64,000 bases of DNA from Candidatus Daviesbacteria bacterium (GTDB taxonomy: Bacteria > Patescibacteriota > Microgenomatia > Daviesbacterales > UBA10151). The stretch is taken from positions 546,634 through 610,633 of the forward strand of contig JAQTZF010000001.1 in assembly GCA_028687915.1 (NCBI GenBank), given 5' to 3'. Below the pieces are notes generated by a model. The model was not told the DNA's origin and made no database searches. It saw nothing but the letters and a program-made list of their open reading frames with translations. Of this stretch, positions 3,900 to 54,625 are shown piece by piece. The translations under genes and the position numbers were made by a program. Every line of letters begins with the position of its first letter. Position 1 is the first letter of the stretch.

Positions 3900-5096
3900 A
3901 TGAAAATTTTAATGTTAACCCCTTATTTACCATATCCCCCTTCATCTGGCGGACAAATTAGATCTTATAATTTAATAAAACAGCTATCAAAAAAACATGA
4001 AATCACTTTGTATTCCTTAATTAAATACGAGAGTGAAACAAAATATGTTGCTGAGCTGGAAAAATATTGTAAAACTGTAAAGATTTTTAGAAGACCACAA
4101 AAGCCATGGACACCTGTAAATATTTTTAGAACAGCTGTAAGTCTGTATCCATTTTTAGTTATAAGAAATTTTTCTGCAGATGAGAAAAGAGATATTACTG
4201 AAACTTTAAAGAATGAGACATTTGATTTAATTCACGCAGAAACATTTTATGTAAGCCCTCATATTCCTAAAACAAACATTCCAATGGTTTTAGTTGATCA
4301 GACTATAGAATTCCAGGTTTATCAACACTATGTACACACTTTTAAGTGGATCTTTTTAAAACCAATTCTTTTGATAGATGTTTTAAAAATTAAATTTTGG
4401 GAAACTTATTTCTGGAAAAAAGCTAAAAAGGTGGTTGCAGTTTCAGAATCAGATGCCAAAAAAATGAGGCAATTAGCTCCGGGTTTAAATGTCTCAGTCG
4501 TACCAAATGGTGTGGGTGAAGATTTAATGGATGATATTCCTTTGCACTTTTCCCAAACAGTACTTTTTATGGGTAATTATGCTTGGTTGCAAAATATTGA
4601 AGCTGCAAGAATTTTAGCGAAAGAAGTATTTCCTTTGATAAAGAAAGAGCTTCCGGAAGTTAAATTAATTATTGCAGGACAATATACAGAAAAGATAGAA
4701 GAATTAAAATCTGAAGATATTAAATTAGTAAATCTTGGATTAGATGATATTGATGGAGTAAAGAAAGCTTATCAGGAAAATGGTATTTTGGTTGCTCCTC
4801 TTTATGGCCCTGGTGGAACAAGATTAAAGATATTAGCTGCCATGGCAGCTAAGTTACCAGTAGTAACTACTAATGTGGGAATTGAAGGGATAGAAGCTGT
4901 AAATGGTGAACATGTTTTATTTGGACAAACACCAGAATTATTAGCTAAATTAGCAATCAAATTACTAACTGATAAAAAGTTATATTCTGATATTGCAACT
5001 AATGCCAGAAAGTTAGTTGAGGAAAGATATTCTTACTTTTCAGTTGCTGAGCAGCTCGATAAAATTTACAGAGAGGTGCAAAACAATGAAGGATAA
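3900..5096 (+). CDS. Family 4 (group 1) glycosyltransferase
   Basis: The N-terminus MKILMLTPYLPYPPSSGGQIRSYNLIKQLS and the C-terminal motif EGIEAVNGEHVLF are typical of the GT4/GT-B fold. The track ORF begins at a TTG at 3885; the ATG at 3900 follows the upstream stop at 3898. Confidence 0.7.
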   Translation: MKILMLTPYLPYPPSSGGQIRSYNLIKQLSKKHEITLYSLIKYESETKYVAELEKYCKTVKIFRRPQKPWTPVNIFRTAVSLYPFLVIRNFSADEKRDITETLKNETFDLIHAETFYVSPHIPKTNIPMVLVDQTIEFQVYQHYVHTFKWIFLKPILLIDVLKIKFWETYFWKKAKKVVAVSESDAKKMRQLAPGLNVSVVPNGVGEDLMDDIPLHFSQTVLFMGNYAWLQNIEAARILAKEVFPLIKKELPEVKLIIAGQYTEKIEELKSEDIKLVNLGLDDIDGVKKAYQENGILVAPLYGPGGTRLKILAAMAAKLPVVTTNVGIEGIEAVNGEHVLFGQTPELLAKLAIKLLTDKKLYSDIATNARKLVEERYSYFSVAEQLDKIYREVQNNEG

Positions 5097-7076: not shown

Positions 7077-7984
7077 ATCTTCTCTGCTGCACGGAGTTTA
7101 GCGCTGCGTGAACGGGGGTTGTCTTGTATTTCCTTCTCTTCTGGTTCAAGGGGTTTTTGAGTAATGACTCTGACAGTATTATTTTCTTCTTCTGCCTTAA
7201 AAAAGTTTTTAACAATTCTATCCTCTAGTGAATGAAAACTTATTATGACTAATCTGCCAAAAGGTTGTAAAATTTCTAAAGCCTGAGGTAATGTTTCTTC
7301 CAGGTTAGTTAGTTCATCATTTACTGCAATTCGTAAAGCCTGAAAAACTTTTGTTGCAGGATGAATTTTTTTAGACTTATCAATCTTCTTAACAGATAAA
7401 ATTATTTGAGCTAACTTTTCTGTTGTATCTATCTTTTCATGGCTTCTATATTCAACTATTCTTCTTGCTATTGGTTTGGCAAATTGCTCTTCACCATATT
7501 TCCAAAATAGTTCTGCCAATTCATTAACATATAAACCATTAACCAAATCAGCTGCAGTCAGAGTCTGAGTTCTATCCATCCTCATATCTAATGGAGCATT
7601 TTTATTAAAACTAAATCCTCTGGTATCTGTTTCAAGTTGATAAGAAGATAGTCCTAAATCAAACAGTATTCCTGCTGGAGATTGGGGAAGAAGAGAAGAA
7701 GATATTTCTTTTATCTGAGAAAAGTTTGCCTGGCAAATAATTAAAGACTCTGATATGGCTTGAAAACGGTCATTAATTAAATTAAGGGTTAATCCGTACT
7801 TTTGGGAAACTTGTTTTATGGCATCTAAATCACAATCTATGCCAAGTACTTTTCCTCCTGCATTTAATATCCTTTCTGTATGGCCACCTCCACCCAAGTT
7901 ACAATCAATATACCAGGCGCCTTTCTGCACCTTTAAATAAGTAATTGCCTCTTCTGGCATAACTGGAATATGATAAGACCCCAT
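7073..7984 (-). CDS. rsmH: 16S rRNA (cytosine1402-N4)-methyltransferase RsmH (MraW)
   Basis: HIPVMPEEAITYLKVQKGAWYIDCNLGGGGHTERIL is the canonical RsmH N-terminus with its SAM-binding motif. The gene is on the minus strand, separated from mraZ. Confidence 0.85.
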   Translation of the reverse strand: MGSYHIPVMPEEAITYLKVQKGAWYIDCNLGGGGHTERILNAGGKVLGIDCDLDAIKQVSQKYGLTLNLINDRFQAISESLIICQANFSQIKEISSSLLPQSPAGILFDLGLSSYQLETDTRGFSFNKNAPLDMRMDRTQTLTAADLVNGLYVNELAELFWKYGEEQFAKPIARRIVEYRSHEKIDTTEKLAQIILSVKKIDKSKKIHPATKVFQALRIAVNDELTNLEETLPQALEILQPFGRLVIISFHSLEDRIVKNFFKAEEENNTVRVITQKPLEPEEKEIQDNPRSRSAKLRAAEKI

Positions 7985-43863: not shown

Positions 43864-43883
43864 TCGGAGCCAGCGGTGAGAAT
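43864..43883 (-). repeat. 20-nt direct repeat of the 3' end of tRNA-Thr (TCGGAGCCAGCGGTGAGAAT), 68 nt downstream of the tRNA
   Basis: The 20-mer is identical at 43864-43883 and at 43952-43971. The second copy overlaps the tRNA-Thr T-loop and acceptor 3' end. Confidence 0.8.
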
Positions 43884-43955
43884 AAGATAGGCTTGTGCTG
43901 CGCAAGCTTAGCACACTTCCTTCTTTATCACACCTTGTCTCCTCATTGCTTTCGG

Positions 43956-44027
43956 AGCCAGCGGTGAGAATTGAACTCACGACCCATCCCTTACGAAGGG
44001 AGCGCTCTACCGCTGAGCTACGCTGGC
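43956..44027 (-). tRNA. tRNA-Thr (anticodon CGU)
   Basis: Reverse-complemented, it folds as acceptor GCCAGCG/CGCTGGC, D-arm GCTC-AGCGGTA-GAGC, anticodon loop TTCGTAA, T-arm GTGAG-TTCAATT-CTCAC, discriminator U. Confidence 0.75.
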
Positions 44028-51977: not shown

Positions 51978-52072
51978 CAAATACTAACCGCTTTTATGTT
52001 TATTTAGCCAAACCACTATTTCGAGCCTAAAATCAATAAAAGGGACTATTCTGGGGACACTGTCCCGTCTGG

Positions 52073-52143
52073 AGCGGGGTACGAGAATCGGACTCGCTTC
52101 TCTACCTTGGGAAGGTAGCATACTACCGGTGTACTAACCCCGC
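52073..52143 (-). tRNA. tRNA-Gly (anticodon CCC)
   Basis: Reverse-complemented, it folds as GCGGGGT-TA-GTAC-ACCGGTA-GTAT-G-CTACC-TTCCCAA-GGTAG-AGAA-GCGAG-TCCGATT-CTCGT-ACCCCGC-U. The U73 discriminator is typical of Gly. C55 in the T-loop is unusual. Confidence 0.65.
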
Positions 52144-52352
52144 ACGAATAATTTCTTGAACCCATTCCCGCCTTTATAAGACTTTATTTGTTTTTCTCTT
52201 CTGCAACATTCAAGATATTCATTATACTCTTCCGTGTAGACTACCTCCCATATTCCTTTTTGTCTTGTAGATTTAGTATGCCCTCTATTATGTTCAGAAA
52301 GGCGCCTTACTAAAAACATCTGACTGGCTTCTCTATCTTGGGAAGGCGGCAT
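52134..52352 (-). pseudogene. Decayed GIY-YIG (UPF0213/YhbQ-like) nuclease gene lacking the N-terminal GIY motif; its 3' end overlaps tRNA-Gly
   Basis: FLVRRLSEHNRGHTKSTRQKGIWEVVYTEEYNEYLECCRREKQIKSY aligns to the C-terminal two-thirds of the intact copy at 54231-54494, and about 23 N-terminal residues (the GIY-YIG block) are missing. The first 9 codons of the track ORF are read from the degenerate tRNA copy. The stop TAG is tRNA-Gly positions 8-10. Confidence 0.6.
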
Positions 52353-52375
52353 ACTACCGGTGTACTAATCCCGCG
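52328..52375 (-). repeat. Partial diverged duplicate of tRNA-Gly(CCC) 5' portion (acceptor 5' strand, D-arm, anticodon loop) upstream of the GIY-YIG remnant
   Basis: The reverse complement GCGGGATTAGTACACCGGTAGTATGCCGCCTTCCCAAGATAGAGAAGCC matches tRNA-Gly positions 1-48 with a disrupted anticodon stem. Confidence 0.7.
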
Positions 52376-52413
52376 TTAACTTATTTCTGAATAATTATAC
52401 ACTCAAATTTAAA

Positions 52414-53088
52414 TTAGCGTGGGATTTTTAACACCATTCCTGGTTGGATGAGATCAGGGTTTGCGATATTGTTTGCTTCAGCGAGTTTGTTGAATTGCAT
52501 AATATCACCATAAGCTCTTCCAGATATTTTTGATAACCAGTCGCCTTCAACTACTGTATATGTATTTCCAGTAATTTTTTCACCCCAAGTTGTTTGGTTC
52601 TCTGAACCTCCTGTTGCTATTTCATTTGTGGTTGAGGCAGATGAAGTTGCAGTTTGAGTTATAGTTGGGGTTGCAGCTGCAGTTGTTTCTTCAAGCTTAG
52701 GAATTTCTAAAACTTGTCCGGTATTAATGGAGTCTGCATTAGTTAAATTATTAGCTTTAGTTATCTCAGTATATTTAAATCCATTATTATAGTATTTTTG
52801 AGCTATTGTAAATAAAGTATCTCCATTCTTTACTGTGTATTTTCCTGGTAAATTATCAGGTGTTACATCAGCCTGGGCTGTTTCTTCTATTTGATTAGAA
52901 GGACCAATGGTAGCTTTGTTTGTTTTAAAATAGTTAAATACTAAAATTCCAGCAATTACTACTATTAATAAACCCAAAACTAAACTTAAATAAGATTGAT
53001 CTAGTTTAAGTTGTTCTTGAAGTTTTTGTAATAATGATTGGTTTTTGTTTGTTATTTCGTTGTTAACAGTTTTTTTAGATCTTGGCAA
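52414..53088 (-). CDS. LysM-domain peptidoglycan-binding protein (2 LysM repeats), membrane-anchored
   Basis: YTVKNGDTLFTIAQKYY and YTVVEGDWLSKISGRAYGD...VLKIPR are LysM motifs. An N-terminal TM helix and a Thr/Ala-rich linker are present. Confidence 0.7.
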   Translation of the reverse strand: MPRSKKTVNNEITNKNQSLLQKLQEQLKLDQSYLSLVLGLLIVVIAGILVFNYFKTNKATIGPSNQIEETAQADVTPDNLPGKYTVKNGDTLFTIAQKYYNNGFKYTEITKANNLTNADSINTGQVLEIPKLEETTAAATPTITQTATSSASTTNEIATGGSENQTTWGEKITGNTYTVVEGDWLSKISGRAYGDIMQFNKLAEANNIANPDLIQPGMVLKIPR

Positions 53089-53321
53089 TTAAATTCACCT
53101 CCTTTTTTATTGGGCAGAATTCGGGGCAGAGCAAAAACATTACTTTGAGCAGAAAAATTATGTTGATTTATATTTAATTGATTCAGGAATTTTTGTCAAG
53201 TGGATATAATATATTTGTGGGCTTGAAGCAAAAAATCTGGAACTCTTATTCAAATGTTTTGTACATCAATATAAAGTGTTAAATAGCTTACAAATTTTTG
53301 CCTAAATTGTTATAGTTAGGT

Positions 53322-53711
53322 ATGGATAACCTGACATCTCCGAATTCCGATAAAGTTTTTTATGAAGATGAAAAAGTTTATGCTTGTTTAGCAAGTTTTC
53401 CAATTACAAAAGGTCATTCTATAGTAGTTTGGAAAAAACCAGTAACAGATTTACACCTATTATCAAGAGAAGATTATGAATATTTAATGAACATAGTTGA
53501 TAAGACTAGAGATACTTTGATGAAGGTTATGAAAGTAGATAAAGTATATTTAATGTACATGGATGAAATTAAGCATGTGCACTGGCATTTAATTCCCAGA
53601 CACAATTTAATGGGATTTAATTTATTAAAACACAAGCCTAAAAAACTTACTTCTTTTAAACTTGTTGAGAAATTAACTGGTATGAAAGAATTAGCGAATA
53701 ACAATAGGTAG
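53322..53711 (+). CDS. HIT-family (histidine triad) hydrolase
   Basis: KHVHWHLIPRH is the HxHxHxx histidine-triad motif. It is 129 aa. Confidence 0.65.
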   Translation: MDNLTSPNSDKVFYEDEKVYACLASFPITKGHSIVVWKKPVTDLHLLSREDYEYLMNIVDKTRDTLMKVMKVDKVYLMYMDEIKHVHWHLIPRHNLMGFNLLKHKPKKLTSFKLVEKLTGMKELANNNR

Positions 53712-54113
53712 AATTTTTCTTTTATCAATAGGCAATCCTAATCGTTTGCTAGTTTCTTGCAGCTCTGTTTCTAACGATTCAGCATCTAGCTCTATTACAT
53801 CTGCGTAGAAGTCTTCTCCTCCACCGGACATTTGATCAAAAGAAAATAAAGAAAAACTCAAAATAGTTCCTGCAGAGCCTGACTCCCTTCTCAAAATTTC
53901 AATTTGACGGTAAATAGAAGCACCTATTTCAGGAGTTTCCCCTTTTATCACTACTTGTCTGCTAGTGTAACCTTGTTCAACTAATTCCTGTAGGGTTTTA
54001 GAGGCTAAACGATCTATTTTTAAATACATGTTATTATCCAAAAAATCAATCTCTTCGTCTATCTCTATTTTAAATTGTTCAAATTCATATGGATCAAAAT
54101 CCGGCTGACTCAT
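53691..54113 (-). CDS. Hypothetical acidic protein
   Basis: It is a 140-aa ORF with no recognisable motif. It lies immediately downstream, in tRNA orientation, of tRNA-Asp. Confidence 0.3.
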   Translation of the reverse strand: MSQPDFDPYEFEQFKIEIDEEIDFLDNNMYLKIDRLASKTLQELVEQGYTSRQVVIKGETPEIGASIYRQIEILRRESGSAGTILSFSLFSFDQMSGGGEDFYADVIELDAESLETELQETSKRLGLPIDKRKILPIVIR

Positions 54114-54167
54114 TAGTAAATTATATCTAAATATTATAGGTTATTCAAGAAGTAAAAACCTATCTAG

Positions 54168-54240
54168 CGGGACCGACGGGATTCGAACCCGCAACCTCTT
54201 CCGTGACAGGGAAGCGCTCTAACCATTGAGCTACGGCCCC
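54168..54240 (-). tRNA. tRNA-Asp (anticodon GUC)
   Basis: Reverse-complemented, it folds as GGGGCCG-TA-GCTC-AATGGTTA-GAGC-G-CTTCC-CTGTCAC-GGAAG-AGGTT-GCGGG-TTCGAAT-CCCGT-CGGTCCC-G. The G73 discriminator is typical of Asp. Confidence 0.8.
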
Positions 54241-54494
54241 AATAAAATGATTCCTTCTCGAATCATCCTTTCAAGTATATTCTTGTTTTTAAACTTCTTC
54301 AGTTTTAATTCAATCTTTCTGGCTTCTATCAAAGAAGAATATTCTTGATGTAATACCAGTTTTACAGGTCTTATAAACTTAAGGCTTTTAGTCTTACCAT
54401 TATTATGCTCCGCTAACCTTCGTTTAAGATCGTTTGTTGATCCAATATAGTACCGACTATTTACTTCTGATTGCACTATATAAACATAAGCCAT
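54231..54494 (-). CDS. GIY-YIG family nuclease (UPF0213/YhbQ-like, URI domain), intact
   Basis: MAYVYIVQSEVNSRYYIGSTNDLKRRLAEHNNG...HQEY.S...AR.IELKLKKFKN carries the GIY and YIG blocks, the Arg, and the Glu/Asn of the URI catalytic domain. The last codons LLGP-stop are encoded by tRNA-Asp positions 1-10. Confidence 0.8.
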   Translation of the reverse strand: MAYVYIVQSEVNSRYYIGSTNDLKRRLAEHNNGKTKSLKFIRPVKLVLHQEYSSLIEARKIELKLKKFKNKNILERMIREGIILLGP

Positions 54495-54553
54495 AATAAG
54501 GCAACCTGTCCGATGTCACATCGGACCGCTCTAACCATTGAGCTACGGCCCCA
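54495..54553 (-). repeat. Partial duplicate of tRNA-Asp 5' portion (positions 1-26, substituted hairpin, variable loop) immediately upstream of the GIY-YIG start codon
   Basis: The reverse complement is GGGGCCGTAGCTCAATGGTTAGAGCG-GTCCGATGTGACATCGGAC-AGGTTGC. It is identical to tRNA-Asp over positions 1-26 and over AGGTTGC. The anticodon arm is replaced by a perfect 6-bp hairpin. Confidence 0.8.
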
Positions 54554-54625
54554 AGACTGTGATATTGTATCAGAGCCTGGCTACACGGTCAATTAAATAC
54601 CTTCTATGGTAATATAAAGTTAACA

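Follow-up and report, generated by a model that had tools for sequence, protein, structure and literature searches.

Predicted GIY-YIG nuclease genes that end inside tRNA genes in a Candidatus Daviesbacteria genome: probable selfish cassettes

Two genes in a 64,000-nucleotide (nt) stretch of a Candidatus Daviesbacteria genome (contig JAQTZF010000001.1; the whole stretch is called the window below) belong to the GIY-YIG family and run on into the transfer RNA (tRNA) genes that follow them, one into tRNA-Asp and the other into tRNA-Gly. We think that both loci are probably small selfish cassettes, each made of a nuclease open reading frame (ORF) fused to a tRNA, that were inserted into resident tRNA genes. 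The full layout comprises the resident promoter, a truncated tRNA copy with a disabled anticodon, a few nucleotides, an ORF of 87 amino acids (aa) and a complete working tRNA. The sequences directly show the anatomy of the loci, their insertion status, the conservation of the ORF-tRNA junction and purifying selection on the ORF. A like arrangement recurs in more than a hundred other genomes. A first-pass annotation of the same DNA had described the ORF ends and missed the partial tRNA copies upstream, the hairpin in place of an anticodon arm, the relic status of the Gly ORF and the insertion status. Our searches of the open-access literature gave no report of such a fusion of GIY-YIG ORF and tRNA gene, nor of tRNA copies with a replaced anticodon arm.

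Two occupied tRNA genes and their empty counterparts

Calls made with ARAGORN and Rfam over the window placed a working tRNA behind each ORF (Table 1); ARAGORN lists four tRNA genes in all. The claim that both ORFs read through tRNA positions 1-7 and stop at the TAG of positions 8-10 is exact at both loci, which lie on the minus strand. The Asp ORF ends ...ATT TTA TTG GGG CCG TAG, with its stop at 54233..54231, and the Gly ORF ends ...TTA TTC GTG CGG GGT TAG, with its stop at 52136..52134; at each, the third base of a codon is tRNA position 1 and the last two residues come from positions 2-7. The two ORFs share 34% identity and fall in separate clades, and are therefore not recent duplicates of each other.

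Table 1. Features of the Asp and Gly loci, in window coordinates
Feature	Position	Strand	Remarks
Promoter-like TTGACC-17 nt-TACAAT with TG-extended -10	54564..54592	-	10/12 matches; ~11 nt upstream of partial tRNA-Asp
Partial, 3'-truncated tRNA-Asp copy	54501..54552	-	absent from the L151 empty site
Palindromic 19-nt hairpin GTCCGATGTGACATCGGAC	54508..54526	.	occupies exactly the anticodon arm, positions 27-43
GIY-YIG ORF, 87 aa, UPF0213/Slx1-like	54231..54494	-	last 10 nt (54240..54231) are tRNA-Asp positions 1-10
Working tRNA-Asp(GTC)	54167..54240	-	ARAGORN; Rfam 73.9 bits
TGTATAAT, extended -10-like element	52394..52401	-	20 nt upstream of partial tRNA-Gly; read from the sequence, not listed by the promoter scan
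Partial, 3'-truncated tRNA-Gly copy, positions 1 to ~57	52320..52374	-	no palindromic hairpin
Relic GIY-YIG ORF, 61 codons + stop	52134..52319	-	last 10 nt are tRNA-Gly positions 1-10
Working tRNA-Gly(CCC)	52070..52143	-	ARAGORN; Rfam 55 bits
Trailer after tRNA-Gly with hairpin GGGACAGTGTCCC	52033..52069	-	no counterpart after L151 tRNA-Gly

Upstream of the Asp ORF, the partial tRNA-Asp consists of two blocks identical to the working gene, 54552..54527 for positions 1-26 (26/26) and 54507..54501 for positions 44-50 (AGGTTGC, 7/7), followed by CTTATT and then the ATG. The hairpin between the blocks is the sole match to CCGAY..RTCGG within the window, and the idea that it is a genome-wide repeat was rejected on this single copy. 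The promoter-like site at 54592..54564 is the best such match near the Asp locus, and we read it as the resident tRNA-Asp promoter, since the same promoter and leader (TTGACCGTGT.GC.AGGCTCTGATACAATATCACAGTCTT) stand directly upstream of a plain tRNA-Asp in a related Microgenomates genome (locus L151). No promoter evidently belonging to the ORF itself was seen.

Locus L151 provides an empty counterpart for both genes. It carries an 84% identical homologue of the 140-aa gene beside tRNA-Asp, and it shares with the window the gene order PolX, small ORF, tRNA-Asp, 140-aa gene, HIT, LysM, tRNA-Gly. Its tRNA-Asp (4872-4945) and tRNA-Gly(ccc) (7120-7193) are plain, with neither ORF nor hairpin. Immediately ahead of the partial Asp copy, the window sequence matches the L151 promoter and leader (TTGACCGTGTGGCTAGGCTCTGATACAATATCACAGTCTT) almost completely, the working tRNA-Asp of the window is 100% identical to its L151 orthologue, and the 3' flank is orthologous too; the window Asp locus therefore holds an insertion. 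Compared with the empty site it has 312 extra bases, hairpin included, which may be written as 54552..54241 or 54526..54215 because of a 26-nt repeat. A MAFFT global alignment set the empty site against the downstream tRNA copy and so masked the promoter homology, which was instead read directly. Occupied and empty alleles of the same site thus exist in related genomes for both tRNAs. A polymorphism look-up through contigs encoding the identical neighbour protein returned a single short contig of the same strain.

A partial tRNA beside a complete one is the usual footprint of an integrative element, and tandem accretion at such sites is known as well (PMC9897764); group I introns, in turn, are common in tRNA genes of Patescibacteria, tRNA-Asp included (PMC13011429). 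That the window loci are remnants of a known tRNA-targeting element, either an integrase-type island with its att duplication or a group I intron with its homing endonuclease, is nevertheless extremely unlikely. The 312-bp insert holds the GIY-YIG ORF alone, with no recombinase, the duplicated part is the 5' portion of the tRNA (positions 1-26 and 44-50) and not its 3' end, Rfam detects no intron or other RNA family at E <= 1, and the working tRNA is uninterrupted.

In front of the Gly ORF, tRNA-Gly positions 1-53 recur at 52374..52322 with 90.6% identity over 53 nt. The anticodon stem of this piece is spoiled (CCGCC/GATAG), its loop TTCCCAA is retained, and the start codon of the ORF is built from T-loop remnants. 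That codon is probably the ATG at 52319; the ATG at 52352, given as the start in the ORF list, falls within the tRNA-like piece. The ORF belongs to a 'KGGNGFK' clade attached to Gly tRNAs. It matches only the distal (C-terminal) two thirds of PF01541 (E = 7.9e-06), and alignment with its closest relatives reveals an in-frame deletion of ~20 codons that has taken both catalytic tyrosines, those of GIY and YIG. Judged by its sequence, it is a decayed relic.

The upstream region around TGTATAAT can be aligned with that of the plain L151 tRNA-Gly (first 26 alignment columns), and the partial tRNA-Gly shows L151-like native states (A6, T-stem GCCAG). Two compensated pairs, G6:C67 and G51:C63, set the working tRNA-Gly apart from this piece and from its L151 orthologue. 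On the simplest reading, the Gly ORF would have come in joined to a complete tRNA, and the native gene would have been cut short; the trailer with GGGACAGTGTCCC probably arrived together with the cassette. Gene order breaks at this point, so the right-hand boundary of the Gly locus is not defined.

Junction, disabled copies and protein among the relatives

Searches with a profile built from close homologues yielded 80 loci in species-representative genomes and a further 69 in metagenomes, and these 149 fetched loci together with the window were pooled into a non-redundant set of 148 ORFs. For 63 of the 148 the ORF end falls between -30 and +45 nt relative to a real tRNA start: the stop coincides exactly with tRNA positions 8-10 in 36, lies deeper in the tRNA (offsets 12-41) in 14 and comes 2-24 nt before it in 13. 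A stop at 8-10 is thus not obligatory. The position-8 stop occurs in 14 species-representative loci on Ala, Asp, Ile and Arg tRNAs; the metagenome set repeats it and adds Val, Asn, Lys and Gly-GCC.

The frame shared by the two window loci had been called unlikely to arise by chance. Taken alone the two loci make a weak case (1/3 to 1/9), but the claim holds across the family: 36 of the 41 tRNA-overlapping ORFs that have a TAG available at positions 8-10 use that frame (p = 7e-13 in a binomial test against a 1/3 expectation, not corrected for shared ancestry), and the ORFs attached to tRNAs that have no TAG there all stop further in (9/9). Any frame that enters a tRNA must end at its first stop codon, and TAG occupies positions 8-10 in 161 of the ~210 tRNAs of the fetched loci, so one frame in three would stop there. 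Chance, or an artefact of ORF calling, is still a very unlikely account of the pattern given the excess over one third, the status of the ORFs as true GIY-YIG genes under selection, and the constant distance between the conserved C-terminal helix and tRNA position 1.

The Ala, Asp, Ile, Val, Arg, Lys, Asn and Gly clades all place the junction 2 nt ahead of position 1, and the clades with the identical junction cover at least 13 isoacceptors. The stop falls at 8-10 because the fusion lies 2 nt before position 1 and U8-A9-G10 is the first in-frame stop of a typical tRNA. Where the tRNA is missing A9, the relatives use another frame or a later TAG. In the Gly-GCC clade, which has TGG at 8-10, the junction is shifted by 4 nt and the stop is the TAG of positions 13-15, a shift that points to selection for a prompt stop and not to a mechanical constraint. 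The base preceding the tRNA is T in 26 of the 36 cases and in 59 of 131 other tRNAs, counts that are not phylogenetically independent. Bacterial ribonuclease P (RNase P) prefers U at position -1, and the excess of T there fits this preference.

The further claim that the ORF moves jointly with the tRNA 5' end is borne out by this junction, recurring as it does across tRNA types, and by the alleles of the tRNAs themselves. The attached tRNA differs as a self-consistent allele from the flanking remnants at the window Gly locus and at L002, L008/L019, L012 and L090, and no other general evidence for joint movement of ORF and working tRNA is as strong as the differences at the latter loci. ORF clades track tRNA type with a few switches. 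A tRNA lies within 150 nt on the same strand for 107 of the 148 ORFs and on the opposite strand for one, and a tRNA or hairpin is nearby for 125. The order differs in more distant relatives (Bacteroidota, Caldithrix and others): the ORF follows the working tRNA at a gap of 1-65 nt, often across a terminator-like hairpin, and runs into a pseudo-tRNA that bears a hairpin. Its stop there is the second conserved TAG (GG-TAG-AGC) or lies in the hairpin loop or the T-stem. An ORF whose 3' end is fused to tRNA-like sequence is therefore the hallmark of the family, of which the window layout is one version.

Most relatives also carry the disabled copy, its anticodon arm (positions 27-43) swapped exactly for a GC-rich palindrome that is usually preceded by GAGCG and followed by AGGTC; the hairpin motif is present in 56 of the 80 genome loci. 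Across 150 distinct hairpins that share the core CCGAY...RTCGG, both outer positions of the stem show Watson-Crick covariation, the outermost pair being T:A in 68, C:G in 31, G:C in 22 and A:T in 6, with very few G:T. Stem type follows ORF clade: most Ala clades have CCCGAY, many Asp and Val clades TCCGAY, and the Gly 'KGGNGFK' clade CCCCGCC. As the hairpin is missing from the empty site and its type covaries with the ORF clade, it belongs to the insertion. Additional hairpins in D- or T-loops are restricted to disabled copies. A 3' piece of the hairpin-bearing tRNA lies downstream of the working tRNA at many loci (L002, L008, L012, L018, L019, L023, L055, L025), breakpoints fall at cloverleaf boundaries (position 1, the D-loop, 26/27, 43/44 and T-loop 58-60), and tandem arrays occur both with and without ORFs (L053, L061, L063, L070).

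The protein encoded by the Asp ORF has a complete GIY-YIG domain, matching PF01541 over residues 1-71 (E = 2.5e-16), and ends in one C-terminal helix. Eight residues (Y5, Y16, G18, R26, H30, E62, K66 and K69) are invariant in 27 relatives, and the median ratio of nonsynonymous to synonymous substitution rates (dN/dS) is 0.24 over 72 pairs, with dS heavily saturated. We read this as purifying selection on a functional protein, for which nuclease activity is predicted. The closest solved relatives are the structures of two uncharacterised UPF0213 proteins, 1zg2 (BH0048, E = 1.6e-12) and 1ywl (EF2693, 4.6e-10); SLX1 matches range from 1.8e-04 to 1.2e-03, and the I-TevI domain matches weakly (4.7e-04). 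Clustered at 50% identity, the family comprises 3,314 clusters at E <= 1e-10 and 21,356 at E <= 1e-3. We rejected a viral origin: no relative was found on viral contigs, and PHROGs and PADLOC gave weak motif-level matches only.

These data bear on two further explanations. In the first, the ORF is a passive hitch-hiker: tRNA duplication and recombination would have produced the layout, ordinary homologous exchange would spread it with the nuclease uninvolved, and the stop would be a frozen ancestral accident. Recombination alone could indeed move a cassette between tRNA genes that are identical between species, as tRNA-Asp is between the window and L151, and most of the ORFs that stop at 8-10 (offset 7) belong to related clades. 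We nevertheless find this improbable, because the invariant catalytic residues and the low dN/dS over deep divergence require selection for an active enzyme, because junction and frame recur in distant clades (Lys-CTT, Gly-GCC at L128, Ile at L023, Val, Asp, Ala), and because a clade-specific hairpin set precisely in place of the anticodon arm is unexpected from plain duplication.

The second explanation is that the nuclease serves the host, acting on tRNA genes or their transcripts (for example by resolving R-loops or other structures at heavily transcribed RNA genes, or by acting on RNA) and encoded in tRNA leaders so as to be made together with the tRNA, the overlap being operon compaction. 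The strong purifying selection, the strict co-orientation with tRNAs and the place of the protein in the UPF0213/Slx1 branch instead of the classical homing branch would all suit such a role, as would a proposed link of Slx1-like proteins to RNA metabolism, suggested by bacterial Slx1-like domains that are fused to or neighbour a COG4123 methyltransferase and a TrmH-like tRNA methyltransferase (PMC1564403). What makes it unlikely is the behaviour of the loci, with presence and absence at the same site in related genomes, a decayed copy in the window, multiple tandem copies and ORF-less scars, disabled tRNA duplicates that always accompany the ORF, and attached tRNA alleles that differ from the flanking ones. 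A host gene, moreover, need not break and duplicate tRNA genes.

Possible routes of spread and comparison with known systems

If the loci are selfish cassettes, as we favour, their structure suggests how they could move. The ORF is flanked by target-homologous sequence on both sides, the partial tRNA upstream and the complete tRNA downstream, and these could act as homology arms for copying into an empty tRNA gene of the same type, by homing-type repair or by a Campbell-type crossover. We infer that the nuclease drives this spread, most probably by breaking the resident tRNA gene. The end point of the exchange would then decide whether the working tRNA is rebuilt, as at the Asp locus, or wholly replaced, as at the Gly locus and others of the L002 type. 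The cell keeps a working tRNA, so that an essential single-copy gene would be open to invasion without an intron. As for the hairpin, it could be a substitute that makes the target site immune, the cognate site of the nuclease, a breaker of homology that guards the ORF against deletion between the repeats, or a structure in the leader RNA.

Expression may be governed by the same geometry. The ORF would be read from the tRNA promoter as part of the tRNA 5' leader, and RNase P, cutting 2 nt before the end of the third-last codon, would release the tRNA and remove the stop codon from the message. Competition between translation termination and RNase P, which the first-pass annotation had raised, would be a logical consequence. 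A ribosome close behind the polymerase could terminate at the 8-10 stop while the 3' half of the tRNA is still to be transcribed. Normal termination would be confined to ribosomes that finish ahead of tRNA folding, and later ones would run off the stop-less end. Ribosomes on non-stop messages are rescued by transfer-messenger RNA (tmRNA), and this rescue would apply here. With the stop removed by RNase P, a potentially harmful nuclease would therefore stay scarce.

Several points weigh against this reading. The protein is an 87-aa single domain with no obvious DNA-binding module for site recognition, and its cleavage activity and target site are putative. If it does target tRNA genes, the sparing of the cargo tRNA would need an explanation; a T-loop feature considered as a mark is not enriched (see below). 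Insertion status derives from a single empty-site comparison, with L151. At the Asp locus the identity of the tRNA to its orthologue leaves import of a whole tRNA without sequence support, and the two compensated differences of tRNA-Gly could have evolved in place. Weak promoter-like matches lie in or near the ORF (54274..54247 and 54504..54475), and the promoter scan gave no more sites than shuffled sequence. The overlap is not universal, and any regulatory use of it would be dispensable, since 13 relatives have their own stop before the tRNA. Frame statistics, finally, are inflated by shared descent.

More tentatively, we suggest that the cassettes might act on essential genes for structured RNAs as a gene-replacement drive. 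Its agent would be a minimal, structure-specific nuclease of the Slx1-like kind, which would recognise heavily transcribed genes such as those for tRNA, tmRNA and RNase P RNA by their folded DNA (a cloverleaf or a hairpin) and cut the resident gene where stems meet loops. Through repair, the cell would acquire the nuclease gene plus a working tRNA in place of its own; the resident copy would be left truncated, its anticodon arm exchanged for the cognate palindrome of the nuclease, and removal of the stop codon by RNase P would limit output to roughly one protein per transcript. Recognition of folded DNA over sequence is suggested, as a hypothesis, by the breakpoints at cloverleaf boundaries, by family members in RNase P RNA and tmRNA settings (see below) and by the kinship with Slx1.

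Among known systems the nearest is SegB of phage T4, a free-standing GIY-YIG homing endonuclease in the T4 tRNA gene cluster (PMC2330249). Both are intronless GIY-YIG genes among tRNA genes, with occupied and empty alleles, and in both the gene and the adjoining tRNA region are inherited together, which for SegB happens by break repair. Unlike the Seg proteins, which are larger, of I-TevI type and equipped with a DNA-binding domain, the window protein is a single 87-aa UPF0213/Slx1 domain; unlike SegB, its ORF is fused to tRNA position 1 and accompanied by a hairpin-bearing truncated tRNA copy; and its hosts are cellular genomes in a family for which no viral relative was found, not a phage. 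With respect to homing endonucleases in general, then, the cassettes show the allelic polymorphism and flanking homology of that class, differ from it in protein architecture, and have a cleavage activity that is putative.

The integrase-type islands and prophages described in PMC9897764 likewise insert into tRNA genes, keep one working copy with a partial copy at the other end, and accrete in tandem. They measure 10-100 kb, whereas the cassette is ~0.3 kb and has no recombinase, and the partial copy that goes with it is the 5' portion, which a conserved palindrome actively disables. Group I introns, some of which carry homing endonuclease genes, share with the cassettes the phylum, the kind of target (tRNA-Asp included) and the tolerance of selfish DNA in an essential RNA gene (PMC13011429); unlike them, the cassette has no ribozyme and no splicing, sits outside the anticodon loop, and is tolerated through duplication or replacement of the tRNA. 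On the features tested, membership of either class is excluded. UPF0213 proteins (BH0048, EF2693) and SLX1 are alike in sequence family and in having a single small GIY-YIG domain, and in the literature searched neither a tRNA-gene context nor mobility is reported for them.

The overlap itself recalls the tRNA punctuation of animal mitochondria, in which messenger RNAs end at an excised tRNA and polyadenylation completes their incomplete stop codons. Both arrangements have a coding sequence that abuts or overlaps a tRNA on one transcript, so that excision sets the 3' end of the message; at the window loci, by contrast, excision would remove a complete stop instead of leading to one, and the gene would be a parasite's and not a housekeeping gene. 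The layout is unusual in that the ORF is fused to a tRNA, the target gene is duplicated or replaced, and hairpins disable tRNA copies.

If our reading is true, a large family of the smallest known nuclease genes has colonised tRNA genes in Patescibacteria and other phyla. It would do so by a third route into essential genes, in which a spare copy is brought or rebuilt; introns and inteins are spliced, and integrases restore one end of the gene. The tRNA counts of tiny genomes would include disabled copies, and assemblies would break at the cassette repeats. A natural message with its stop inside a tRNA would make the race among translation, tRNA folding and RNase P directly testable, and a structure-specific nuclease that measures <90 aa and has a cognate palindrome would make a useful reagent and would hint at the function of the uncharacterised bacterial UPF0213/Slx1-like proteins.

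Further observations on hairpins, tRNAs and other structured RNAs

Two candidate features of the Asp leader were set aside. In the minimum-energy RNA fold, the pseudo-acceptor strand pairs with the start-codon region and the hairpin is kept; its z-score is -1.26 and the pairing is not found in other tRNA types, and the fold was not used. A Shine-Dalgarno sequence formed from the 3' strand of the hairpin and the variable loop (GGGGAGGT) appears in some loci with inconsistent spacing and is weak in the window.

The T-loop of the working tRNA-Gly(ccc) is UCCGAUU, with C at position 55, a position that is almost universally U (pseudouridine) in tRNAs. The same T-loop is present in ~14 of roughly 190 tRNAs in the fetched loci. 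As a mark of nuclease immunity on cargo tRNAs it was rejected, with 8/62 attached tRNAs and ~6/95 others giving no clear enrichment.

Elsewhere in the window (43866-44027, minus strand), the last 19 nt of a tRNA-Thr(cgt), from the T-loop to the end (TTCTCACCGCTGGCTCCGA), are repeated 52 nt downstream of the gene. This stretch of ~71 nt is missing at the orthologous L151 locus and is therefore a small insertion or scar with its breakpoint in the T-loop; neither an ORF nor a CCGAY hairpin is present in it.

Public protein predictions give roughly one in three of the 150 best family representatives N-terminal extensions that, read by eye, are the translated tRNA-like piece or hairpin upstream (for example P0003, P0007, P0089 and P0103, with ..RPDGHREG.., ..RPDVHR.. 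and the T-arm peptides GSNP/GSSP). Gene callers thus start these ORFs too early.

Two of the arrays, made of hairpin-bearing tRNA pieces, have no ORF. At L063 (1-1071) 3' pieces with a terminator repeat with a 105-nt period, and at L070 (1660-1870) 5' pieces repeat with a 73-nt period ahead of a working tRNA-Val. In L105 (897-969) and L106 (1434-1506), ARAGORN calls a tRNA-Val(cac). A single small change would turn its anticodon arm, GTCCGTTCACATCGGAC, into the conserved hairpin GTCCGATG..CATCGGAC. The near match may reflect how the hairpin arose or may mean that a hairpin copy was miscalled as a tRNA. In the Lys-CTT clade (L134 427-470, L135 970-1000, L144 797-830) it is the D-loop of the disabled copy that holds the hairpin (CCCCGATTWAATCGGGG), between repeats of TCAA, and L134 has two copies of the hairpin. 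The repeated TCAA resembles a target-site duplication and suggests that the hairpin may be able to insert alone.

Other family ORFs accompany structured RNAs besides tRNA. In one sub-family, associated with RNase P RNA, the ORF lies within a hairpin, in the order CCCCCCACCAC-TTTTT-ATG...stop...AAGTGGTGGGGGG and then GAGGAAAGTCCGGGC (L035 1985-2290 and L037; by sequence also L031, L039, L040, L047, L052, L054 and L057). Rfam RF00010 begins at the ORF stop in L035 and L037, and the ORF appears to sit in the loop of a P3-like helix. At L043 (237-504, 1138-1491, 1621-1852), a tmRNA (RF00023, 177 bits) is flanked by two family ORFs.

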